A DNA stretch of 33,463 bases from a virus (taxonomy: Duplodnaviria; Heunggongvirae; Uroviricota; Caudoviricetes), in IMG/VR virus record IMGVR_UViG_2548876860_000012, positions 1-33,463 of that record, one strand, 5' to 3'. This document shows positions 5,305 through 33,463 of this stretch, piece by piece. The notes beneath the pieces were generated by a model that made no database searches, was not told where the DNA came from, and worked only from the letters and a program-made list of their open reading frames with translations. The translations under genes and the position numbers were made by a program. How positions within the stretch are numbered: the stretch's first letter is position 1; every line of letters begins with the position of its first letter.

Positions 5305-7140
5305 TTACCTGCCAAAGCGCGTATAGCCAACATCATGGCTGACATCAAAACCGCTGGATCGCGTTTCCATAACCCGCATACCCGGAGGCGAATTCACAAA
5401 AGAGACCTTGATCTCACCATCAACTTTTGGCGCAGAAGCTTTGTTAATCATGAAGGGATTCGGGCCTGTGGCATCGGAGGCGTTGTTTGACTGAGCCGGA
5501 TCTACCGCCTGATAAGGTGTGTATCCCCGTGCCGGTATTCCCGTCCCATAAGCATCATAAGCACCCGCGCCCCACTGCGCAGAGTTAATGACATCGACCG
5601 TGTCACCGGAACTGTCGGTAAACCACTCAATAATTGGCTTCAGCTTGTCCCACATATCCTGAAACCACTTAACAACCGGTCCCCAGTTATTGATCACCAT
5701 CCCCAGCGGCGACCAGGCAAAAACCTTCTTCAGAAGTTCCCAGCCAGCCTCAAAATAAGGACCAATGGTTTCCCAGAGCTTCTTGAAATAAGGTCCGACA
5801 ACATCCCAGTTAGTGATAATTAATCCCGCAGCCAGGGCTATCGCCGTCGCAATCATTCCAATCGGCGTCATCGACATGATCCTGCTGACAATACTGATGG
5901 CACCGCCAACGCCCATCAATCCCAGTTTCAGAATCGCAAGACCGGCAGCAAGCCCGACGACGCCGCGAATAACCCGGGGATTTTCATCCGCAAACTTCGT
6001 GAATTTTTCCCCTAACTCTCCCAGCCATTGCGTGATATTTTTGGCGTCACCAGAAAATGCGCCGCCAATAGCCGCAAGGCCGTTAGTTGCGGTCCCCGTC
6101 ATTGCCTCCCACAGGTTGGACAGCGTACCAAGCTGGGCCTGAACACGTTTATTCAGGCTGGCCTGTTTATTCATCTTCTGCTGGATCTGATCGTAACCAT
6201 CCTTTCCTTTATCGATCAGAGCATTGACCACCTGAAGGGTTTCAGCATCATCACCAAATATTGCCTTAAGTACACCTGTTCGCTTAACGTCGGTCAGTTT
6301 TCGCAGCTTTGCCAGTTGCCTGAACATGTTATCAAGACCGCCAAAACTTCCTTTGCCGTCAGTAAAATCGAGCTGTACCCCGAGTTTCTGGCGGGCCATA
6401 ACTTTATTAACGTCCCTGATTTTCTTAACGCTTAATCCGGACTGGATAACTTTTCGCAGGGCATTACCTGCCGACTCCCCGTTCATCCCCATCTGATCCA
6501 TCATGACGCTGATGGGGGCAAGGCTCTGTGCAGCCTGAAGACCGTCCTTGTTCACCATCTTCAGAACAGAACTGGTTTTAGTGAAGAAGGACAACATGTT
6601 GGTATCGTCAACGCCCAGATAAAACGCCTTCTGGATAGTGTCGAACAGCCCCATCATGTCTTCTGACGCCGTTCCGGTAGCATCCTGCATCTTTGCAGCA
6701 AACTCAGCAGCCGCTTCCGGTGTTTTTTTCAGTTGTACCGCAAGATAAGCTGTCGCTTTACCCACACCACCCAGAATGTTTTCTGCCGGGATCCCCTGAC
6801 GCACCAGCATCTGCATCATGTTCTGGAAATCAGCCGTTGTACCGGGTAGCTGGTTACCCAGGCCAATAGCCAGTTTATTGATGTCCTGAAAGCTCTTTCC
6901 AACCTCGCCGTTCGCATCCATCATGGCGACTTTCAGCCCGGTGGCGGCGTTTTCCTGATCGGCATAAGATTTCAGGGAAAGCGTCAGACCCGCTGCCAGT
7001 CCGCCACCAAGCGCCAGCCCCCCCTGTGACGCTTCTTCCGCCTGGCGTTTAAATCCCCGGATTTTCTTTTGCATTTTCGACAGCGCGGGAGAAAGCCTGT
7101 CGACACCGGTGATCAACGCCTTAAGCTCAAATTCAGCCAT
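5305..7140 (-). CDS. Tail tape measure protein
   Basis: 611-aa ORF with Ala/Gly-rich and hydrophobic segments, immediately after the chaperone frameshift pair. Confidence 0.8.
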   Translation of the reverse strand: MAEFELKALITGVDRLSPALSKMQKKIRGFKRQAEEASQGGLALGGGLAAGLTLSLKSYADQENAATGLKVAMMDANGEVGKSFQDINKLAIGLGNQLPGTTADFQNMMQMLVRQGIPAENILGGVGKATAYLAVQLKKTPEAAAEFAAKMQDATGTASEDMMGLFDTIQKAFYLGVDDTNMLSFFTKTSSVLKMVNKDGLQAAQSLAPISVMMDQMGMNGESAGNALRKVIQSGLSVKKIRDVNKVMARQKLGVQLDFTDGKGSFGGLDNMFRQLAKLRKLTDVKRTGVLKAIFGDDAETLQVVNALIDKGKDGYDQIQQKMNKQASLNKRVQAQLGTLSNLWEAMTGTATNGLAAIGGAFSGDAKNITQWLGELGEKFTKFADENPRVIRGVVGLAAGLAILKLGLMGVGGAISIVSRIMSMTPIGMIATAIALAAGLIITNWDVVGPYFKKLWETIGPYFEAGWELLKKVFAWSPLGMVINNWGPVVKWFQDMWDKLKPIIEWFTDSSGDTVDVINSAQWGAGAYDAYGTGIPARGYTPYQAVDPAQSNNASDATGPNPFMINKASAPKVDGEIKVSFVNSPPGMRVMETRSSGFDVSHDVGYTRFGR

Positions 7141-19121: not shown

Positions 19122-19301
19122 CTACTGTTCTTCTATTTTTTTACTGGAAATCAATCCACTGGTCATTTCATAACCGTTTGTGTGGCCACAGTAAGGGCAA
19201 ATAATTGGCTCTTTATCCTTTCCTCCTGGATAGCCTCCACTGTGCTCCCAATAAATAAACTCTTTATTGCAACTTTCATTACTACATCTTGTATTGCTCA
19301 T
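19122..19301 (-). CDS. Small zinc-ribbon protein (59 aa), moron between Q and lysis
   Basis: Not in the ORF track. ATG at 19301 with GGAG 8 nt upstream, stop at 19122-19124. Translation MSNTRCSNESCNKEFIYWEHSGGYPGGKDKEPIICPYCGHTNGYEMTSGLISSKKIEEQ carries two CxxC pairs. AT-rich. Confidence 0.45.
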   Translation of the reverse strand: MSNTRCSNESCNKEFIYWEHSGGYPGGKDKEPIICPYCGHTNGYEMTSGLISSKKIEEQ

Positions 19302-19503: not shown

Positions 19504-20256
19504 TTATCTTGTCACTCTCCTCAATTGTGTCTCAGCATATGCTTCTTCCTGCCAGCACTTTGTCACCAGTTTATCAATGACATCTGCATATCCTTTGTAC
19601 CACTGATAATCCGTCAGGTCTGGTACCAGCTTCTGGACATGATGCCGCGCCAGTGTGGTTGGTAAACGACTAAACCGGTTTCCATTGCAACGCCCACAAA
19701 TCTTATAAACAGGCGTGCCATGAAGCCGGGTTCTTTTTTCATCCAGGATAATACCTTTACCCTTACATCCTCTGCACGCCGTGCTGACTTCTCCCTTACC
19801 ATGACAATGCTGACATAGTTCCTTCACCCTCTCTGCCTTGATAATGGATTCCCCGCTTCTGGAGTGTTTCACCACTTCGCGCAATACATTATGAAATCCA
19901 GTACCAGCACAATGCTCACAGCGAGCCTTACTTGCCGCAGACCTGGAATAATCAGCAAAGGCAAAATTCACAAGGTAAGGGATGATCTGTAACCGGGTTT
20001 CTTCACTCAATTTGTTCAATGTCGGGTTATCCAGTGCCATCGCGTAATTGAGCAGACCTTCAATCGCAAACTGAGGATCCTGAACACCAACTTTTGCCAG
20101 GAATAAGGCAAAACCCAGTGGTGCTTTCGACTGCACCATCCCCTGCGCAGCCATCACATCTGTAATTGTTAAACCACCAGAGCCTGTCGCCGGTGCGTCA
20201 TCACTCAATTTTGGAGATTTTGGGGAGTAATATTTTGGTAAGGCTTCAAGGTTCAT
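19504..20256 (-). CDS. Putative late antiterminator Q
   Basis: 250-aa ORF with clustered Cys motifs (CEHCAGTG, CQHCHGKG, CRGCKGKG, CGRCNGNR), placed immediately upstream of the terminator and lysis cassette. Confidence 0.5.
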   Translation of the reverse strand: MNLEALPKYYSPKSPKLSDDAPATGSGGLTITDVMAAQGMVQSKAPLGFALFLAKVGVQDPQFAIEGLLNYAMALDNPTLNKLSEETRLQIIPYLVNFAFADYSRSAASKARCEHCAGTGFHNVLREVVKHSRSGESIIKAERVKELCQHCHGKGEVSTACRGCKGKGIILDEKRTRLHGTPVYKICGRCNGNRFSRLPTTLARHHVQKLVPDLTDYQWYKGYADVIDKLVTKCWQEEAYAETQLRRVTR

Positions 20257-20269
20257 GCTCGTTCTCCAC

Positions 20270-21265
20270 TTACGCCAGTACGCCTATTGCCAGCGCATGA
20301 TCGATAAAACGAAATATCAGCTCCAGCTGGGAGCCATACTTCTCTTCAAATGCCACGGTATTCGCATGCAGCTCGTCGTGATGCTTTCTGCACAAAGGCA
20401 ACACAAAGAGGTCATGCGCTTTAGTACCCATTCCACCCTGACCGTGACCTATCAGGTGGTGGGGATCATCAGCAGGCTTACCACAACATGCACACGGCTG
20501 TGTCTTAACCCAGCGCGTGTACTTTTCATTAACCCAGCGGCGACGTTTTGGGCGTAACATAAAAGACTCCGGCGACTCCGGATCCACTTTCAGCGCCAGC
20601 ACCTTTTTCGCTTTATCCTGGATAATGCTGGTGGCAGGAACCGAAGGCACAAGGTCACTCTCCCGGGTGACAGACAGCACAACAGGCCTCGGTAATCTCA
20701 GTGCCTTACGGGCTGCACTTTCCGGTAAGGCATCAGCCAGGTCATTACGAACCAGCCACCAGCACAGTTCCGGCATTGTCACAACGTGGCTATCATCAAA
20801 ACCGAGATCACGGCGCACAACAGATAACACCCAGCTGGCACAGTTATCCGTTGCCATTGATTCCAGCCGTTCCGTGAACTGATCGCGCAACTGGTTATCG
20901 CAGTGCCAGCACAGACGGATTGCGCCCGGCGCGTGCCGCATTGTGGTCATGTTCTCGCTGTGCCAGTCGGAATGAGGCCACTGGCAGCCTTTTTCACGAA
21001 GTAACCAGCTTTCAAGACATTCCACGCCACCAGCACGACGGATCACTGCCTCATTGCGGAACACGGCCCGAACGGCAGGATCATCCGCCAGCGGTTGTGA
21101 TGCCGCCGGAACGGCACCACTGGCGAAAGATGAATAACGCTCCGGCTCAGGCTCCAGCAGGACACGCCCCTGCATAAACAGGGGCATCAGCTCTGAACCT
21201 GGCCTGAACAATACGATCCCCATACGCGGGGCAATTTCAGGGGTTAGTAGTGCTCTCACGGTCAC
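20270..21265 (-). CDS. DUF968-like protein with C-terminal HNH-like Cys/His motif
   Basis: 331-aa ORF; C-terminus CACCGKPADDPHHLIGHG...LCRKHHDELH. Sits in the nin-region position between the antirepressor and Q. Confidence 0.5.
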   Translation of the reverse strand: MTVRALLTPEIAPRMGIVLFRPGSELMPLFMQGRVLLEPEPERYSSFASGAVPAASQPLADDPAVRAVFRNEAVIRRAGGVECLESWLLREKGCQWPHSDWHSENMTTMRHAPGAIRLCWHCDNQLRDQFTERLESMATDNCASWVLSVVRRDLGFDDSHVVTMPELCWWLVRNDLADALPESAARKALRLPRPVVLSVTRESDLVPSVPATSIIQDKAKKVLALKVDPESPESFMLRPKRRRWVNEKYTRWVKTQPCACCGKPADDPHHLIGHGQGGMGTKAHDLFVLPLCRKHHDELHANTVAFEEKYGSQLELIFRFIDHALAIGVLA

Positions 21266-21266
21266 C

Positions 21267-22064
21267 TCAATGAACGGTATCGAGCAGCTTTAACAGCTCA
21301 GGGAATCGGGATTCGAAGAAATGCGGCTGCGTCTCGCGCGGATTTGCGGGACTGGTGATGTTCTTGCCGAACATGCAGCCTTTCGCTGTCAGCGACCAGA
21401 ATTTTTTGATGTTGTTAATCGCGGTACGGCTGTATCGTTCGCGTTGTTCAACGATCCCCAGCTTCGCCATCTGGTGATATGCCTGATTAGCCGTCAGGCA
21501 GATACCATACTGTTTCAACAGTGCACTCAGTGACAGTGTCGGGCGACTTGAGCCATCAGGCGCGTCAGCAGGAGCATCAATGGCATAGCGCGGTGCCAGA
21601 TTTGGTAAGCCAACAGCCTCCTGGAGTTTCTGACAGGCCCCAAGCACAGATGAGTTAGACAGGTTTAACTCCCGACGCATAAAGTCCAGCAGAATCACGC
21701 CAGCCTGCATCTTGTCAGCAGCCTGTCCGGATAATTTTTCCGGTGCGCTGGTTACCATGTCGAAAGTACGGATCACCTTCAGATGGAATGACGGGCTGAT
21801 CCACATTGCATAGGCATACACCAGTTCCTTACAGACATACGTCCCCTGATTATTTCCGCCGCGAATAACGTTAACTGGCTCTATATTGACCGAGTTGCAA
21901 ATCTGCAACTCGCTTATTAAACGTTCAGTTTGCTCATTGCGGAGCCAGAATGCAGGCTTATGCTTATCCAGAGAACCGGCAGCCCTGTGCAGATCGTTCA
22001 GGCTGTAACGCCCATAAGCATCACGACGAACTTCAATACCATCAATGACCATCAGATTATTCAT
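21267..22064 (-). CDS. KilA-N domain antirepressor-like protein
   Basis: 265-aa ORF with a KilA-N-like N-terminus (MVIDGIEVRRDAYGRYSLNDLHRAAG...KPAFWLRNEQTERLI). Confidence 0.65.
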   Translation of the reverse strand: MNNLMVIDGIEVRRDAYGRYSLNDLHRAAGSLDKHKPAFWLRNEQTERLISELQICNSVNIEPVNVIRGGNNQGTYVCKELVYAYAMWISPSFHLKVIRTFDMVTSAPEKLSGQAADKMQAGVILLDFMRRELNLSNSSVLGACQKLQEAVGLPNLAPRYAIDAPADAPDGSSRPTLSLSALLKQYGICLTANQAYHQMAKLGIVEQRERYSRTAINNIKKFWSLTAKGCMFGKNITSPANPRETQPHFFESRFPELLKLLDTVH

Positions 22065-22083: not shown

Positions 22084-22473
22084 TCAGGCGGCTGCACCCG
22101 CCGTTTTCTCGTACTTACTGATAGTGATCTCGACCTTCCCTTCCGGGATAACCGGTCCCCACTCCACCAGCATTCTTTTCACCTGACTGTCGTCTTCCCA
22201 CACACCCGCGTGGGTCAGGGCGTCAAACAGCGCCTTGTTATAGTTGTCCAGATCGCGGATCCGGTTATCCGGTGGAAACAACACGATCTCCACTGCAGCA
22301 GGTGCCGACGTTGGTTTCGGCAGACGACGTAACTGCTCAACTATTGCTGTGCACGCCGCGCTCTGGAATTTTCGCCCCGCCGTGCTTATCAGGCTCTTAC
22401 CAGCAAACGCCCCTTTGTTGGGGTGTCGCCAGTACGTGTTCACGCTGGGCGGAAAAGGCAGAATAAGCTTCAT
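22084..22473 (-). CDS. rusA: Holliday junction resolvase RusA
   Basis: 129-aa ORF; DLDNYNKALFDALTHAGVWEDDSQV matches the RusA catalytic core (DLDNL.KA.FDALT.AG.W.DD.QV). Confidence 0.85.
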   Translation of the reverse strand: MKLILPFPPSVNTYWRHPNKGAFAGKSLISTAGRKFQSAACTAIVEQLRRLPKPTSAPAAVEIVLFPPDNRIRDLDNYNKALFDALTHAGVWEDDSQVKRMLVEWGPVIPEGKVEITISKYEKTAGAAA

Positions 22474-22829
22474 ACTTTCAGGCCCCTCTCATGTAACCAG
22501 TGGGCTGCACGCAGCCTGGCGTTTTCCTCACCGGCAAGCAGTGAGCGGATAATCCCGACCGCCTCGCTGTCGTCGTCCTTCACCGCGGTATGAAGCGTTA
22601 TCCCCCGGGCCACGCCACGCTTTATCGTGATGACGCCTTTTTTCTCCAGCGCACGAAGATGCTCCACCGCTGCATTCACCGAACGGTATCCCAGCATGGT
22701 TGCCACCTCCTGATTGGTTGGCGGGAAGCCACGTTCTTTCTGATAAGAAATCAGCATATCCAGCACCTGCTGCTGGCATTGAGTTAACGTCGTCATTAAG
22801 CCCCCACGTAATTCCCTGACAGATACCAC
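22470..22829 (-). CDS. LexA N-terminal DNA-binding-domain-like protein without S24 peptidase domain
   Basis: LTQCQQQVLDMLISYQKERGFPPTNQEVATMLGYRSVNAAVEHLRALEKKGVITIKRGVARGITL parallels the LexA N-terminal domain; the ORF ends after about 119 aa with no protease domain. Confidence 0.6.
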   Translation of the reverse strand: MVSVRELRGGLMTTLTQCQQQVLDMLISYQKERGFPPTNQEVATMLGYRSVNAAVEHLRALEKKGVITIKRGVARGITLHTAVKDDDSEAVGIIRSLLAGEENARLRAAHWLHERGLKV

Positions 22830-23290
22830 TCTTCACCCGATGCAGCGCGCTTGCTTCTTTTCCGTAAGCACCGCTCACGACGCGCCAGAAAATTGTTTCG
22901 TTCTGGCTGGGAGTGGCTTTCACGGAATGCCGCCATCCACACCGTTGCAGCACGACGGTATAAGCCCCTGGACTCCAGTTCTTCAGCCTGGCGGGTCAGG
23001 CACAAAATCACCCGGGGATCGTTAGTGCCGACATAGAAATTGCGCACAGGTCTGGTTTCACGAACTGGTTGTGGTTCCGACTCCTGCGCTCTCTCAGTCA
23101 GGCGCGGGAAATGTCTGCGTGTATCTCCTTCACAACGGTGAGCCACACGCCCACTCTGACGTAACTTGCTTGCTGACTGCAGAACGCGCTGCCGTGAGTA
23201 ACCTGCAAAAGCATCCGCAATGTCTCCGGAAGTACAGCCCGGATGGGCTTCAATGAATTTCTGAACGTCATTCAAAAGACTCATGCTCAC
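22796..23290 (-). CDS. Putative PerC/ANR-like regulator
   Basis: 164-aa basic ORF; the segment AEELESRGLYRRAATVWMAAF resembles PerC-family motifs. Weak call. Confidence 0.3.
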   Translation of the reverse strand: MSMSLLNDVQKFIEAHPGCTSGDIADAFAGYSRQRVLQSASKLRQSGRVAHRCEGDTRRHFPRLTERAQESEPQPVRETRPVRNFYVGTNDPRVILCLTRQAEELESRGLYRRAATVWMAAFRESHSQPERNNFLARRERCLRKRSKRAASGEEWYLSGNYVGA

Positions 23291-24228
23291 CCCCTGAATC
23301 CTGCCGGGATCTGGCTGTAGTCCACATTGTCGTAACTGGCTTTGAAGTACGGGTCTTCGCGTTTTTCTGTGTACGTGCTGACGGACGGCGATAAGCGCAG
23401 GGAAAGCTCATCCCATTTTTCCCGCAGCTTCGACGGGCTGAGCACGTTACGGCACCAGAACGGATCGCGGCTGACGCGGCTGTACATCTCGCAGATTTGT
23501 TTGTGAGTACGACCATCCTGCACACACATCAGGCGTATTTCGTTTGCCCATGCTGTCCAGTTCGGTTCTTTGGGACGTACCACTTCGCCGTCACATTCGG
23601 CGGCCTGCTCGTACAGAGCGATGATTTTTTTCCAGAGCCACTGTGCGCAGGTCAAATCATCCTGCGTCCCCCACTGGCGCTTTTTAGGGCTGAATACAAC
23701 CGCATCAGGATGGCGAGTTAAAAAATCCTGTTCAGCCGTCTGCGTGTCCGGTTGCGAAGCGTCCGGACGAGAAGGTTTTTTATCTGACGGATCATGTTTT
23801 GATTTTACTGACGGATCCCCGCCAGATTCTGACGGGTGAAAACCCGCTTTTTTGCCAGATTTCGACGCATCAAATTTTGACGGGTCAGATTTTGATGCGT
23901 CAGATTTTGACGGGTCAGAATCTGACAGTTGAGAAAATGCCGCTGCCTGAAGCTTCGCAACGTTAAGCTGATAAACATTCGACGCATTGCGGTTACCCTG
24001 GCGACGCGCCTTACGCGTTAACCAGCCTTCTGCTTCCAGCCGTGCGATAGCCGTTCTGACGGTACTCATTCCCGCGCCAATCTGGCGGGCAATGGTTTCA
24101 ATTGATGGCCAGCACACACCTTCGTCATTACTGAAATCAGCCAGGCGGGCCATAATTGCCACGCTGGATAATTTCATGCCTGATGCAGCGCAACCATCCC
24201 ATACATAGCCGGTTAATTTAGTGCTCAT
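23287..24228 (-). CDS. Replication initiation protein (O-like) with iteron-encoded linker
   Basis: 313-aa ORF with an HTH-like N-terminus, an internal repetitive linker (DPSKSDASKSDPSKFDASKS) encoded by 15-bp DNA repeats, and a C-terminal domain. Confidence 0.65.
   Translation of the reverse strand: MSTKLTGYVWDGCAASGMKLSSVAIMARLADFSNDEGVCWPSIETIARQIGAGMSTVRTAIARLEAEGWLTRKARRQGNRNASNVYQLNVAKLQAAAFSQLSDSDPSKSDASKSDPSKFDASKSGKKAGFHPSESGGDPSVKSKHDPSDKKPSRPDASQPDTQTAEQDFLTRHPDAVVFSPKKRQWGTQDDLTCAQWLWKKIIALYEQAAECDGEVVRPKEPNWTAWANEIRLMCVQDGRTHKQICEMYSRVSRDPFWCRNVLSPSKLREKWDELSLRLSPSVSTYTEKREDPYFKASYDNVDYSQIPAGFRG
23783..23930. repeat. Iteron-like direct repeats (candidate replication origin) inside the replication gene
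   Basis: About eight copies of a TGACGG(G/A)TCA-like core (tctgacggatca, actgacggatcc, tctgacgggtga, ttcgacgcatca, tttgacgggtca, tttgatgcgtca, tttgacgggtca, tctgacagttga); the last four are at 15-bp period. Confidence 0.6.
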
Positions 24229-24237
24229 GACCGACCT

Positions 24238-24576
24238 CTATTTCCCTGAATTTACGACGAAACTGTTCGAGCGGGCTGAAGCACTCATGCTCATAGCCTT
24301 CGCGGAGGTAGATAACACGTTGTGTTTCCGGCTCCCAACGAATGACTCTGACGGGCACTCCGTAGTGATCTTTGAACCAGCGGTTAACTTGTCGCAAAGG
24401 ACTGTCTCCTTCTGCCGGTTGAAATCACCCACAGCCCACTCTGCAAAGCTGTGGGTTACAATTTCCCTGTCACCTGGTACATTTACTGCATAGCAATACT
24501 CCACCTTCGCTTTTCCACCCGGTACAGGAAGCGCAATCAGTTGCGAGCGACGGTAGTGTGTTGTTAAACTGTTCAT
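24238..24576 (-). CDS. Hypothetical early protein; frame ambiguity near the 3' end
   Basis: 112-aa track ORF. A different frame over the 3' half gives a more protein-like product ([45 protein letters not shown]) with no ATG start. Confidence 0.3.
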
Positions 24577-25235
24577 GCGTTAGTTTCTCCACAGTCACGA
24601 CACGCCACGGCGCCCGGAGCTGCACACTCGCGGGCGTCACTACTTTCTGAAACGCAAAAGATTTTGTAGACCAGAGCTGCATGCTCCTGCAGCTTCGAAA
24701 TTGAGAGGTACAGCTCATCGTTAATTGCTGTCTTCTCATGCGGTTCCACCACACCGTCTTCAATTGCTGAACGAATCTGTCTGGAATAACTGCCGATCTG
24801 TTCAATGACTTCCAGCAGACGCTGGTTAATATCGGCATTGTCCACATCCTCGACGTCAGGAAGAGACACAAAGATGCCATTTGCAGACTGCGCCACAGCG
24901 TCAGCAATGAAGTGAGTTCCACCAGCACGTTGCAAAATCATTGCCCATCCCAGCGGGAAAATCTGATCGCCATCGGCACGAAGGCGGTTAAATAATGCGT
25001 TTTCTGTTACGTCCAGCCAGTCAGCAGCTTCAGCGTAACCCCCCGGCAACGCTGCGATAGTTTTTCTGACAGCTTTCACGTACCACTCAGGCTGTTTTTC
25101 TACTTTCCAGTGATGCTTACCCACGGTTAACTCCTCGTTTCTGTGGTTACGTTTACGCAGCTGAACCGCTAACTTTTGAATAGCACTCAGGTAATCCATC
25201 ATTTGGATTGGGGTAAATATCAGGACGCAGTTCAT
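24573..25235 (-). CDS. Early regulatory protein (CII-like/YdaT-like, tentative)
   Basis: 220-aa ORF directly downstream of cro-like; its 5' end overlaps cro by 83 nt, so the true start is probably internal. Confidence 0.35.
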
Positions 25236-25416
25236 GAGGGGTCACGGACCAGTTTCCCAACTCACAAAGTTGTAAAACCCGTTCTGACGGGACTTGATTG
25301 TTAATTACCCAATTAGCGACGGATTGAGTGGACTTAAAACCAAAGTGACGGGCTACTTCAGATAAAGATTTTCCCGCAGCTTTTACTGCTTTCTCTGTGT
25401 AGTTTTGAGATGACAT
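25153..25416 (-). CDS. Cro-like HTH regulator
   Basis: 87-aa ORF transcribed divergently from the CI gene, with GGAGGAG Shine-Dalgarno upstream and an HTH-like segment (SLSEVARHFGFKSTQSVANWV). Confidence 0.7.
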   Translation of the reverse strand: MSSQNYTEKAVKAAGKSLSEVARHFGFKSTQSVANWVINNQVPSERVLQLCELGNWSVTPHELRPDIYPNPNDGLPECYSKVSGSAA

Positions 25417-25532
25417 ACCTTTCTCCTCCGAAATTCAGAGGGATGATGCTACTTAAAATAGCAAAATGCAACTACTTAAAATAGAAATGACTAGCGTATG
25501 TGATGCGAGTAATCTTCTACCTATGGTAGAAG
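25417..25532. promoter_or_regulatory. Divergent immunity promoter/operator region (OR-like)
   Basis: Two copies of the 13-mer CTACTTAAAATAG 23 bp apart (25449-25461 and 25472-25484) between cro-like and cI-like genes, plus an inverted repeat CTTCTACC-TAT-GGTAGAAG at 25514-25532. Confidence 0.6.
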
Positions 25533-26227
25533 AACAGAAGTATCCAGATTTCGCCAAGAGACTAAACGAGCTAATGACAAACAAGGGAATTTCTGTCACC
25601 CAACTCAAAAGTCTTGTGGGCGTTACATATGAAATGGCGCGGCGATACACAATCGGCGCTGCGAAGCCTCGTGCCTCTGTCATGAATAAACTTGCATTGG
25701 CTCTGGGGGTATCAGCTTCATATTTAGAATATGGTGTTGGCGAGAGAGAAGGATGTAAGGAAATGGCAAGCATCCCCAATCCAACAAAACCCGATGTATA
25801 CAGGATAGAAGTTTTGGATCTTAGCGTTAGCGCAGGACCTGGGACCTATATGCTTTCAGACTATGTTGATGTGCTCTACGCCATTGAGTTCACAACAGAG
25901 CATGCCCGTTCTCTTTTCGGTAATCGTTCTCAAGATGATATTAAAGTTATGACTGTAAATGGCGACAGCATGTCCCCTACTCTAGTTTCCGGAGATCGAC
26001 TGTTTGTCGACATTTCTGTTCGCAACTTCCAAACTGATGGTGTTTACTCTTTCGTTTATGGTAAGACGTTCCACGTTAAACGTCTACAAATGCAAGGCAA
26101 CAAACTCGCCGTTCTTTCGGATAATCCAGCCTATGAGAAATGGTACATTGATGAGAAGTCCCAAGATCAACTTTATGTTATGGGCAAAGCATTGATACAC
26201 GAATCAATTAAATACAACCGGCTTTAG
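25466..26227 (+). CDS. CI-type prophage repressor (HTH plus S24 LexA-like peptidase domain)
   Basis: 253-aa ORF with an HTH N-terminus (ISVTQLKSLVGVTYEMARRY) and S24 motif VNGDSMSPTL. Start is ambiguous (25466 or the internal ATG at 25523). Confidence 0.8.
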   Translation: MQLLKIEMTSVCDASNLLPMVEEQKYPDFAKRLNELMTNKGISVTQLKSLVGVTYEMARRYTIGAAKPRASVMNKLALALGVSASYLEYGVGEREGCKEMASIPNPTKPDVYRIEVLDLSVSAGPGTYMLSDYVDVLYAIEFTTEHARSLFGNRSQDDIKVMTVNGDSMSPTLVSGDRLFVDISVRNFQTDGVYSFVYGKTFHVKRLQMQGNKLAVLSDNPAYEKWYIDEKSQDQLYVMGKALIHESIKYNRL

Positions 26228-26397: not shown

Positions 26398-27474
26398 ATG
26401 ACAAAATCAATTTGTTTTTTTAATCATAAAGGTGGGGTAAGTAAAACCACAACAACCTTCAATCTTGGATGGGCACTTGCGGATGAAGGCAAGAAAGTAT
26501 TGATGGTTGACCTTGATTCGCAATGTAATCTAACAGGAATGGTTCTTGGCTATGAAAAGATTGATGAGGGTTTAGATTCTTTTTATTCTAGCAGAGATAA
26601 CTTAACTCTTGGACCTATTGTAGAATATTTGATTAATGGCGGACAACCTGAAGCATACCTTGAAAAAGAAACGGGAAAATTACACCCTACACTGCATGAA
26701 AACCTTCTGCTTCTTCCCGGACATTTAGATGTTTCGGACTTAGATTCACAGATAAGTGTTTCTCTAAAAATTGCTGCTGGTATTCCTGCTACAAGAAATA
26801 TACCAGGGAACCTGCCAAAAATATTACAGCTAATCGCCTTGAAGAATAATATTGATTACATTCTTTATGATCTCAGCCCTAATGTTGGAGGTTTAAATGA
26901 AGTAGTTCTCATGTCAAGTGACTATTTTATCGTACCTGTAGCTCCAGACTTTTTTTGCTGGCAAGCAATTCGCTCTCTCTCAAAAAATATACCTCGCTGG
27001 CACAAAGAATTAGCATTATTTAAAGAAAATAATGATGGTAACTCTTCACAATCAATTAAAAATGCACCGCAGTTTCTAGGCATGATTCAGCAGAGATACA
27101 GGCCGCGTAAAGGAGCACCTGTAAAATCTTTCGAAAAATGGATGGCAGCTATCCGTGATGCTGTTGATTCGATCTTAGTGCCAAATCTAGAAAAAATTAC
27201 CTGCATAATTCCACGAGATAAAGTGCAACATGCAATTAACAAAACAACAGTCAGTGGAGATTTATCAGCCTATGATCTTGCGCATATTTCCGATTTCAAC
27301 TCATTAATCGCAATAAGCCAACAACTAGCGACACCTGTTTTCTCCATCAGTGATCAGCAAATTCGCGATTCAGGGCAATTTGGGCATGCCTTAAATACAA
27401 TGAAATCAAGCAGAGACGCCTTTAACGAACAATTTAAAGGGCTGGCTCAACGAGTTCTAGAACTTACAAAGTAA
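26398..27474 (+). CDS. Orphan ParA/MinD-family P-loop ATPase
   Basis: 358-aa ORF with deviant Walker A (NHKGGVSKTTTTFNL), A' (VLMVDLDSQ) and B-like (IDYILYDLSPN) motifs and AAGGA Shine-Dalgarno. AT-rich; no ParB-like partner in the window. Confidence 0.7.
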   Translation: MTKSICFFNHKGGVSKTTTTFNLGWALADEGKKVLMVDLDSQCNLTGMVLGYEKIDEGLDSFYSSRDNLTLGPIVEYLINGGQPEAYLEKETGKLHPTLHENLLLLPGHLDVSDLDSQISVSLKIAAGIPATRNIPGNLPKILQLIALKNNIDYILYDLSPNVGGLNEVVLMSSDYFIVPVAPDFFCWQAIRSLSKNIPRWHKELALFKENNDGNSSQSIKNAPQFLGMIQQRYRPRKGAPVKSFEKWMAAIRDAVDSILVPNLEKITCIIPRDKVQHAINKTTVSGDLSAYDLAHISDFNSLIAISQQLATPVFSISDQQIRDSGQFGHALNTMKSSRDAFNEQFKGLAQRVLELTK

Positions 27475-32033: not shown

Positions 32034-32049
32034 CTGTATATGCATACAG
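32034..32049. promoter_or_regulatory. SOS-box-like motif (CTGT-N8-ACAG)
   Basis: CTGTATATGCATACAG; the extended 20-mer TACTGTATATGCATACAGAA matches the LexA consensus TACTGTATATATATACAGTA at 17 of 20 positions. Confidence 0.45.
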
Positions 32050-32070
32050 AATTGAAAGAAAATTAAGCTC

Positions 32071-32099
32071 TTGAAAGTGCTTGGTTTTATGGAATAATG
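32071..32099 (+). promoter_or_regulatory. Sigma70-like promoter for the downstream operon
   Basis: TTGAAA (32071-76), 17-bp spacer, ATAATG (32094-99); AGGAG Shine-Dalgarno at 32116-32120 precedes the ATG at 32128. Confidence 0.45.
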
Positions 32100-32127
32100 A
32101 AACCAAATAGTTTACAGGAGTTTTCTT

Positions 32128-33024
32128 ATGCAGTTGTATGCCTTACGTGTGTTAATGAGACCGCGCGATCCAGACCTCTTTTCGAAAGGAACTGTTCAGA
32201 AAGATATCTCTCATTTTGAAAATGCTATGGTTATCGCTGCAAAAAATTTACACATGACGTCATCAACACCTTCCGTTCATAAGAAAACTAGTTACACCCT
32301 GAAATTGAGCATAAAACCTACTGATGGTGTTATGGCTGGAGTCATATCAAAGCTGCAAAAGATTAAAGGACATGATAAAGACTTTCGAGAGTACGATGTA
32401 GACAACTATCCACCTATCGTATGGATTTGGGACAAAGTAGAGCAGGTGTTACTGGTTGAGAGGAAAACCGCTGTTTTCAAGGATGCGCAACAAGTTGCTA
32501 AAGCGTTCGAAGATCTAGCCAATAACGACTATTTGGCTCAGTTAGGACTTAGAATATTTATAGAGCCTTGTCTTGAAATGGAAGATTTTTGGTCAGAATA
32601 CCATAGGCTTCAATTTATCGACAAAGTCAGCTTTACGCTGATTACTCCGAATATCTTCGGAAGCAGTAAGCAAGCGTTAACCAATGATTTACGGAAGCTT
32701 GAAAAAGATACCAATGCAAATACTGTGACCACTATTTTTGAAAACAAAGATGGCAATTTGAAACTCAAAGGTTCTCATTGGGCTGAGACTCTTGTTGACT
32801 GGGTCAAAGATGGTGGCGGGTCATGGTTGATTAAAGGACGTAAGACACTCAAGTCAAAATCTACTACGGTATCCAGTAATCAGACAGCCAAAATCGTGCT
32901 GATCGAAGGTGAGATATCAGAAATTGAACTTGATGGCTACTCAGCAAATGATATTAAAGAGATCATAGCATTACATCAAAACAGGTATACGTTCAAAAAT
33001 GCAAAATCTAACTGTCTGGATTAA
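32128..33024 (+). CDS. Hypothetical protein, first gene of an AT-rich two-gene operon
   Basis: 298-aa ORF with good Shine-Dalgarno; no motif I recognise. Lys/Asp/Glu-rich and AT-rich, unlike the prophage structural genes. Confidence 0.6.
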   Translation: MQLYALRVLMRPRDPDLFSKGTVQKDISHFENAMVIAAKNLHMTSSTPSVHKKTSYTLKLSIKPTDGVMAGVISKLQKIKGHDKDFREYDVDNYPPIVWIWDKVEQVLLVERKTAVFKDAQQVAKAFEDLANNDYLAQLGLRIFIEPCLEMEDFWSEYHRLQFIDKVSFTLITPNIFGSSKQALTNDLRKLEKDTNANTVTTIFENKDGNLKLKGSHWAETLVDWVKDGGGSWLIKGRKTLKSKSTTVSSNQTAKIVLIEGEISEIELDGYSANDIKEIIALHQNRYTFKNAKSNCLD

Positions 33025-33463
33025 AGCTATAGCTACCTTCTTTTTGTGCTTAGCATTAGCATCGACTGATAAAACCATTTATACCTTACTTGAGCAGGCT
33101 TCTGCTGGAGTAATAGGTTCAATACTTGGAGGTATTGCCGCAGGTATCTCCGTTATCTTCGGAATTTTGGCTGTCATTAATAAGGGCGAGAAAAGCACAG
33201 ACTTTACGGACTATTTAGATAGTTTAGAATTAGATTTGAAATTACTGGTCATGTGTCTGGCAGTAACAATCTTCCTTCCCTATTTACGTAATTATGACAT
33301 ACCACTAGTAAATTATCCTCAGCACGAATTTATCCCTTCTAAAGGCAAGCTATTTACTGCTTTAGAACTTTTTGCTATCGTGCTATCTCTTAACCTCATT
33401 GCAGAAGTGATTAGCTGCATGATTTTAGTGGTTAAAAAAAGTTTCAAAATTGAATCAAAGTGA
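32999..33463 (+). CDS. Small four-TM membrane protein, second gene of the operon
   Basis: 154-aa ORF overlapping the upstream gene by 26 nt; four hydrophobic helices (AIATFFLCLALAS; GVIGSILGGIAAGISVIFGILAVI; LKLLVMCLAVTIFLPYL; ELFAIVLSLNLIAEVISCMILVV). Its stop codon is the last 3 nt of the window. Confidence 0.6.
   Translation: MQNLTVWIKAIATFFLCLALASTDKTIYTLLEQASAGVIGSILGGIAAGISVIFGILAVINKGEKSTDFTDYLDSLELDLKLLVMCLAVTIFLPYLRNYDIPLVNYPQHEFIPSKGKLFTALELFAIVLSLNLIAEVISCMILVVKKSFKIESK

Follow-up and report, generated by a model that had tools for sequence, protein, structure and literature searches.

A protein homologous to the LexA DNA-binding domain, without the autoprotease domain, in the early-right operon of a lambdoid prophage

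The stretch of DNA analysed here, IMG/VR record IMGVR_UViG_2548876860_000012 (33,463 nucleotides, Caudoviricetes; hereafter the window), carries intE and xisE and represents a lambdoid prophage with e14/icd-type integration. On its minus strand, between a gene of the PerC/YfdN family and the gene for the RusA Holliday-junction resolvase, it carries a small gene whose product is a true homologue of the LexA repressor's N-terminal, DNA-binding domain without the autoprotease domain. An earlier interpretation made without database searches (hereafter the sequence-only reading) had assigned this gene to positions 22470-22829; an open reading frame (ORF) on the minus strand indeed exists there, but the span corresponds to its maximal extent, and the likely start is the ATG at 22796. 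The gene, its product and its borders are as follows:

22470-22829, minus strand: LexA-like ORF at its maximal extent, 119 amino acids (aa) from a GTG start (ORF list)
22470..22796, minus strand: most likely LexA-like coding sequence, 108 aa plus TGA stop (PGAP start, start of the Pfam match)
22797..22829, minus strand: in-frame upstream extension of 11 codons to the GTG, inside the PerC-family gene; homologues have 106-108 aa
22794..22798, minus strand: TAATG overlap between the PerC-family stop and the LexA-like start (read from the sequence)
22590..22796, minus strand: winged helix-turn-helix domain, residues 1-69 (PF01726, AF2, Foldseek)
22641..22679, minus strand: recognition helix, residues 40-52, VNAAVEHLRALEK (LexA alignment)
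22575..22589, minus strand: flexible linker, residues 70-74 (predicted local distance difference test score, pLDDT, <50 at residues 71-74 in both models)
22473..22574, minus strand: two-helix tail at the C-terminus, residues 75-108 (helices at 75-88 and 93-103; AF2 pLDDT ~90)
22470..22473, minus strand: ATGA overlap between the LexA-like TGA stop and the RusA ATG (read from the sequence)

The likely start at 22796 is suggested by sequence comparison, as the equivalent ATG is the PGAP start in near-identical (98%) prophages (WP_000210164.1, 108 aa) and the Pfam match to PF01726 begins exactly at its Met; the 11-codon extension is probably not translated as part of the LexA-like protein. The first base of this ATG is also the last one of the TAA with which the PerC/YfdN-family gene upstream ends, and this overlap is a translational coupling. 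At the other end RusA starts 4 nt before the LexA-like stop, which leaves no room for a decayed protease domain.

The relationship to LexA was identified by several methods. In the Pfam search LexA_DNA_bind (PF01726) scored 68.7 bits (E=3.7e-19, cut-off 23.7), with profile positions 1-65 of 65 covered at residues 12-76 of the 119-aa ORF, and was the sole family above its cut-off, the next one, HTH_Crp_2, reaching 18 bits and falling under its own. BLASTP against E. coli LexA revealed 43% identity over LexA residues 1-86 (E=1e-21), gapless through residue 68, and the best matches among solved structures are all LexA (1lea, 1jhh, 3jso). Two AlphaFold models of the protein (pLDDT 79 and 86) predict a winged helix composed of helices 6-22, 28-35 and 40-52 and strands 56-58 and 66-68 (AF2 pLDDT ~91), the two strands forming the wing. 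The Foldseek search identified the LexA N-terminal domain (3jso, 1lea) as the top match, with a root-mean-square deviation (rmsd) of 1.0-1.2 A, ~51% identity and E ~3e-6; the superposition extends over 67 residues at rmsd 1.0 A, and the first winged helix other than LexA appears at E 6.5e-3, three orders of magnitude weaker. The E-values together with the Foldseek ranking indicate that the resemblance is specific to LexA. Thus, the likeness to the LexA N-terminal domain noticed in the sequence-only reading is borne out by Pfam, BLASTP, the solved structures and Foldseek alike, and a generic winged-helix resemblance, which that reading had itself raised as the opposing outcome, is excluded.

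The part of the protein that follows the winged helix bears no trace of the peptidase. The chain ends at residue 108, Pfam gives no match to Peptidase_S24, and the TIGR00498 LexA equivalog model is matched at its positions 1-91 of 203 only and fails the threshold (70.8 bits against a cut-off of 110.95). It had been proposed that the protein stops where the S24 domain would begin; the absence of this domain holds, but beyond the winged helix the chain continues with a flexible linker and then with a two-helix tail that is conserved. The linker residues are variable and gapped in family alignments. The tail (~30 residues) is unrelated to LexA and matched no family in the Pfam search, and its pattern EAxxLxxxLxAxxxxARxxAxxxLxxxG is kept in relatives down to 39-50% identity. 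It would be a dimerisation module, and the layout echoes that of LexA in outline: a DNA-binding domain, a flexible linker and a second module, here a mini helical hairpin. In the BLAST alignment the 'LLAGE' of the window allele falls on the LexA cleavage site VAA/GE (Ala84-Gly85). Its interpretation as a retained cleavage site or trans-substrate was rejected, as the motif is not conserved (LLANEE, LLVGEE, LLTRKE and MVERES in relatives).

In LexA the base-contacting residues are Ser39, Asn41, Ala42, Glu44 and Glu45 (contacts cited in PMC3091678 and PMC13416735). The alignment of the contact helix, proposed in the sequence-only reading as a check, shows that the window allele has S, N, A, V and E at these positions, i.e. 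four of five residues as in LexA with Glu44 replaced by Val, and that it retains H46 as well. Over 74 unique family sequences no variation is seen at S39, N41, A43, H46, K53 and the wing residues R64, G65 and I66. Position 44 holds A, V or F but Glu in none of the sequences. At position 45 Glu accounts for 62%, Ala for 28% and Ser for 7%, the non-Glu residues (Ala, Ser, Asp, Thr) amounting to ~38% of the family, close Citrobacter relatives included. In one Citrobacter relative, 66% identical, NTIAG replaces NAAVE. Moreover, positions 44 and 45 co-vary, with an A-E class (38 unique sequences) and a V-A class (20), which look like alternative DNA specificities within the subfamily; both classes occur among viral loci L015-L094 (LexA-like gene at ~6001-6321), in one subfamily that is otherwise 80-95% identical. 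The enterobacterial (Enterobacterales) hosts of the family share the same LexA and the same SOS box. A protein dedicated to that box should not vary at positions 44 and 45. Cyanobacterial LexA proteins that are substituted there have a different operator (PMC13416735, PMC3091678).

The evolutionary analysis was based on 90 related viral contigs or loci, retrieved with two relatives as single-protein queries. The product is 106-108 aa long in 82 of them; RusA lies directly downstream in all 90, and in 89 its start overlaps the LexA-like stop by the identical 4 nt. The nin-type position upstream of RusA, DUF968 and Q is found also in SfII, mEp390 and E. coli prophages. Between subfamilies the LexA-like proteins are 42-50% identical, against 72-82% for RusA and 64-67% for DUF968, a gap that would be typical of a regulator diversifying in specificity. 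In comparisons between subfamilies every gene shows saturation at synonymous sites. Within one subfamily the ratio of nonsynonymous to synonymous substitution rates (dN/dS) equals 0.20 for the LexA-like gene, 0.08 for RusA and 0.09 for DUF968. The LexA-like gene is under purifying selection, yet evolves faster than its neighbours, and the value of 0.20 indicates a functional protein.

An exhaustive profile-free search gave 4,563 proteins at E <1e-3, among them tail-bearing relatives (105-135 aa, 39-52% identity), and a version of 158 aa with a different tail exists. Two further phages encode LexA-domain proteins of a shorter type:

L097 2495-3753, Edwardsiella phage EPP-1: tail-less 71-aa LexA-domain gene directly upstream of DUF968
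L096 694-2200, Klebsiella phage ST846-OXA48phi9.1: 91-aa LexA-domain gene without the helical tail, two genes before DUF968

The more persistent linkage of LexA-domain genes may thus be to the DUF968 Orf-HNH gene and not to RusA. BFVD contains many phage proteins consisting of the LexA domain only (65-150 aa), including those of Tectiviridae and of a mycobacteriophage. Another architecture was noticed in P0132, P0133, P0148, P0152, P0153, P0156 and P0160 (140-350 aa), which contain a tandem pair of LexA_DNA_bind stretches and lack an S24 motif.

The neighbourhood of the gene in the window comprises:

25466-26227, plus strand: cI repressor, HTH_3 plus Peptidase_S24 (Pfam)
25153-25416, minus strand: cro-like gene (domain assignment)
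24573-25235, minus strand: cII-family gene (domain assignment)
23287-24228, minus strand: replication O-like gene (domain assignment)
22796-23290, minus strand: PerC/YfdN-family gene, directly upstream of the LexA-like gene (Pfam PerC E=3.4e-8, PGAP)
22084-22473, minus strand: RusA Holliday-junction resolvase (Pfam RusA E=1.5e-14)
21267-22064, minus strand: KilA-N domain protein (Pfam)
20270-21265, minus strand: DUF968, Orf-like plus HNH (Pfam DUF968 E=3.3e-80)
19504-20256, minus strand: Q antiterminator, end of the early-right operon (Pfam Antiterm E=1.7e-53)

The sequence-only reading had placed the gene among early genes, next to RusA and an antirepressor. The early-right location and the RusA neighbour at 22084-22473 agree with the domain assignments; the supposed antirepressor would be the protein at 21267-22064, in which the Pfam search identifies a KilA-N domain. 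The LexA-like gene belongs to the CI-repressed early-right operon and occupies the place of the lambda nin region; strong terminator-like sites on the minus strand are found only beyond Q (19398-19377 and 19106-19085). A promoter of its own, and hence expression in the lysogen, was considered and rejected: no convincing minus-strand promoter was found upstream, and the promoter-like matches are at or below the shuffle expectation. As the operon is repressed by CI and has no convincing own promoter at this gene, expression is expected on infection or once the prophage has been induced and not in the lysogen, which speaks against an anti-induction factor acting in the lysogen. The SOS-sensing immunity repressor of this prophage is, by its domain composition, its own S24 CI, and this role is therefore not that of the LexA-like protein.

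The protein was compared with several known systems. With E. coli LexA (1lea, 1jhh, 3jso; TIGR00498) it shares the N-terminal domain, four of the five base-contact residues and a linker after the domain, but the S24 domain, Ser119/Lys156 and the conserved Ala-Gly cleavage site have no counterpart; a helical hairpin of ~30 residues stands in place of the LexA dimerisation domain and Val in place of Glu44, and the gene is phage-encoded in a lytic operon. The CI-type S24 repressors of lambdoid phages (e.g. 25466-26227) are likewise phage DNA-binding regulators tied evolutionarily to LexA/S24; however, they share the opposite half of LexA, namely the S24 autoprotease, joined to a Cro/CI helix-turn-helix, and are RecA-sensitive immunity repressors. 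A published likeness is gp6 of the Bacillus thuringiensis tectivirus GIL01 (Fornelos et al. 2018, PMC6182141), a truncated LexA homologue which binds its own palindrome GaCACAnnTGTGaC, a site that overlaps the -35 element of late promoter P3, and activates this promoter. According to that description gp6 is also a phage-encoded LexA DNA-binding domain without protease, made from an early operon after SOS derepression, with a recognition helix diverged from that of host LexA (PMC6182141). It differs in having a short C-terminal extension that completes the wing and no helical tail, in belonging to a Gram-positive tectivirus and in its proven function; moreover, gp6 exerts late control by activating a promoter, while the window prophage has the Q antiterminator. 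It is the only studied example of such protease-less phage LexA proteins that we found. Lambda NinH (Chakraborti et al. 2020, PMC7166090), a homodimeric Fis mimic with a host-related sequence preference, is similarly a small nin-region protein encoded among recombination genes that copies only the DNA-binding part of a host regulator, but it has the Fis helix-turn-helix fold instead of the LexA winged helix, and it has been biochemically characterised.

In the scenario that we favour, although we would place about as much weight on its being wrong, the LexA-like protein is a RecA-insensitive, early-operon, LexA-derived DNA-binding regulator with an operator of its own, probably dimerising via the tail. 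The early-right operon would be transcribed only once the S24 CI of the prophage is cleaved, or on infection, and a chain of coupled translation would lead from the PerC-family protein through the LexA-like protein to RusA. Residues 1-69 would fold as a LexA winged helix with the recognition helix binding DNA, and the two-helix tail behind the flexible linker would replace the LexA C-terminal domain for dimerisation. The dimer may then recognise an inverted repeat whose half-site is related to, and not identical with, the CTGT of the SOS box, and a specific phage or host promoter would be repressed or activated when host LexA has already been destroyed. DNA binding, the non-SOS operator and the regulatory outcome are all inferred here. 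An own operator is preferred to the SOS box because Glu44 is never kept, Glu45 is variable and the protein evolves faster than its neighbours, and by analogy it parallels GIL01 gp6 and lambda NinH.

Several observations weigh against this scenario. With four of the five LexA contact residues in place, the window allele may bind canonical SOS boxes. Dimerisation via the tail, too, is only what we infer, and the tail itself is missing from the 71-aa protein of phage EPP-1 and replaced by a different, long one in the 158-aa version. Literature searches for a functional or experimental study of the family found none. No candidate operator emerged either: among CTGT/ACAG inverted or everted repeats of spacings 0-20 in the window, none stand out beyond two exact N8 sites (CTGT-N8-ACAG; 32034-32049 and 25953), one-mismatch matches are not enriched (16 against 11.2 +/- 3.6 expected), and the module, which has few intergenic gaps, contains no conserved palindrome in them. 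A search for inverted repeats that would distinguish the A-E from the V-A class gave candidates that were rejected, since the top matches lie in the DUF968 coding sequence (CQWPH..WH) and some occur in the other class; they are an artefact of linkage and coding. The site at 25953 was rejected as an operator, as it falls within the coding sequence of cI, has a GC-rich spacer and is probably due to chance.

No candidate palindrome was found near Q and the late region. A Q-to-lysis palindrome at 19181, TGTGGCCACA, was discarded, as it is inside an ORF and in none of the other loci. It is a perfect 10-bp palindrome, and the ORF encodes a Cys-rich, zinc-ribbon-like protein of 59 aa (19122-19301, minus strand; CSNESC...CPYCGH) and is flanked by the holin gene and by a tR'-like terminator located downstream of Q.

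Or perhaps the protein is an uncleavable LexA surrogate that occupies canonical SOS boxes and re-imposes repression of the SOS regulon in lytic growth? We consider this unlikely, though likelier than the other alternatives. Lacking the cleavage site and the Ser/Lys protease, the protein would act when host LexA is already gone. Its targets would include LexA-controlled genes of mobile elements, antirepressors of rival prophages and the SOS-boxed cassette of the same prophage at 32034, and expression from the lytic operon would coincide with LexA depletion. The window allele keeps S39, N41, A42, E45 and H46 and follows LexA numbering without gaps through residue 68, but Glu44 is lost in every member of the family and Glu45 replaced in ~38%, up to the NTIAG of Citrobacter, though the hosts share the LexA box, and the protein evolves ~2.5x faster than its neighbours. 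The LexA dimer by its geometry (PDB 3jso) dictates the N8 spacing of the SOS box, which a different dimerisation module need not reproduce; the isolated N-terminal domain of LexA binds operators weakly, which also speaks against an effective surrogate. A retained host-like sequence preference has a precedent among nin-region mimics in NinH (PMC7166090), and a strong SOS box is present in the same prophage. Across the 90 related loci, however, good canonical boxes are confined to a minority (e.g. L027, L029, L037, L043, L074), ~4 kb upstream in the immunity region, at inconsistent places, and no consistent link between an SOS box and the LexA-like gene was seen.

The more specific proposal of a RecA-proof LexA stand-in, made only after induction and rebinding SOS boxes to shut the SOS regulon down, appears to us rather improbable. 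If true, such a stand-in would silence the LexA-controlled antirepressors, colicins and cargo of competing elements, possibly also the cassette at 32034-33463, and about half of E. coli strains would hold a phage-encoded SOS 'off switch' for competition between elements.

The box itself (32034-32049, TACTGTATATGCATACAGAA) had been singled out in the sequence-only reading as a candidate target of the LexA-like protein. It is a good LexA box, matching the consensus at 17/20 positions, 22 nt after the intE stop, but nothing ties it to this protein. Downstream of it there is a promoter-like site (32071-32098, TTGAAA-16-AATAAT with TG), followed by two overlapping ORFs (32128-33024 and 32999-33463, the second running off the window) with no match in Pfam, PADLOC or PHROG, whose homologues are 'hypothetical' proteins of Enterobacteriaceae. 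The 32128-33463 cassette is probably SOS-controlled cargo of the prophage.

Another role, which we regard as quite unlikely, is that of an accessory DNA-binding or architectural factor of the RusA and/or DUF968 recombination module, e.g. one targeting or bending DNA. The 4-nt overlap with RusA in 89 of 90 loci, maintained despite LexA-like proteins that are only 42-50% identical, would be explained in this way, but nin regions are mosaic and densely packed, and synteny in them can reflect linkage and nothing more. On the lambda map, NinH is likewise adjacent to a resolvase, Rap, in the same region; RusA, on the other hand, functions alone in other prophages and phages such as DLP12 and phage 82. 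In the loci without RusA as the neighbour, the LexA-domain gene lies just or almost just before DUF968, an Orf-like recombination-mediator domain fused to HNH, which elsewhere is fused to RusA (PMC4118853). The variation of the recognition helix, however, points to sequence-specific and not structure-specific DNA binding. Finally, a decaying remnant or a generic winged-helix ORF without DNA-binding function of its own is very improbable: although the annotation comes from homology only, the LexA-specific E-values and fold, the length conserved at 106-108 aa among 82 of the 90 loci, the dN/dS of 0.20, the invariant DNA-facing and wing residues and the presence of the gene in ~2,200-2,700 of 5,426 complete E. 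coli genomes as well as in functional phages all argue against it.

The gene is widespread. Among 5,426 complete E. coli genomes, 2,703 contain the 1.4-kb module, the coverage reaching >=80% in 2,165, and copies with 95-100% protein identity are found in SfII, SfIV, SfV (orf42), mEp460, phage cdtI, Ayreon and Stx2a/Stx2c phages. The gene thus reaches Shigella serotype-converting phages, Stx2a/Stx2c phages and ~40-50% of complete E. coli genomes, and any effects on SOS genes, prophage induction (Shiga-toxin release included) or phage recombination would be broadly relevant. The protein belongs to its own family, PHROG 362 / WP_000210164.1 / SfV orf42, with 97-100% identity to the copies in SfII, SfIV, SfV, mEp460, cdtI and Stx2a/Stx2c phages, and matches PHROG 362 over the full length (E=1.4e-59, positions 1-106 of 106). 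As an object it is not new, being already annotated as PHROG 362, as a PGAP 'LexA family transcriptional regulator' and as SfV orf42; it is a member of an annotated family and not a new kind of system. Phage records name it 'LexA DNA binding domain protein', 'LexA-like protein' or 'transcriptional repressor', and a comparative paper on Stx phages lists it merely as a pham (PMC8136144). In AB285204.1, KF030445.1 and LR595868.1 it is labelled 'RecA-mediated autopeptidase' or 'SOS-response repressor and protease LexA'. The autopeptidase and protease labels are annotation errors propagated by homology, and 'repressor' is a homology transfer.

Membership of the LexA-like protein in a defence system was considered and rejected, as PADLOC gives only a sub-threshold CARF-wHTH match. 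In most related phages and prophages a 654-bp gene for a dam-type N6-adenine methyltransferase lies between the PerC-family and LexA-like genes (SfII, Stx2c phages, mEp460 and many E. coli; e.g. L002 6794-7447 and L003 7905-8558); it is cleanly absent from the window (between 22796 and 22797) and from a minority of genomes. Directly downstream of cI, a gene for a ParA/AAA_31-type ATPase (26398-27474, plus strand), with a weak PADLOC match to PDC-M28B, is an unusual partner for an immunity region.

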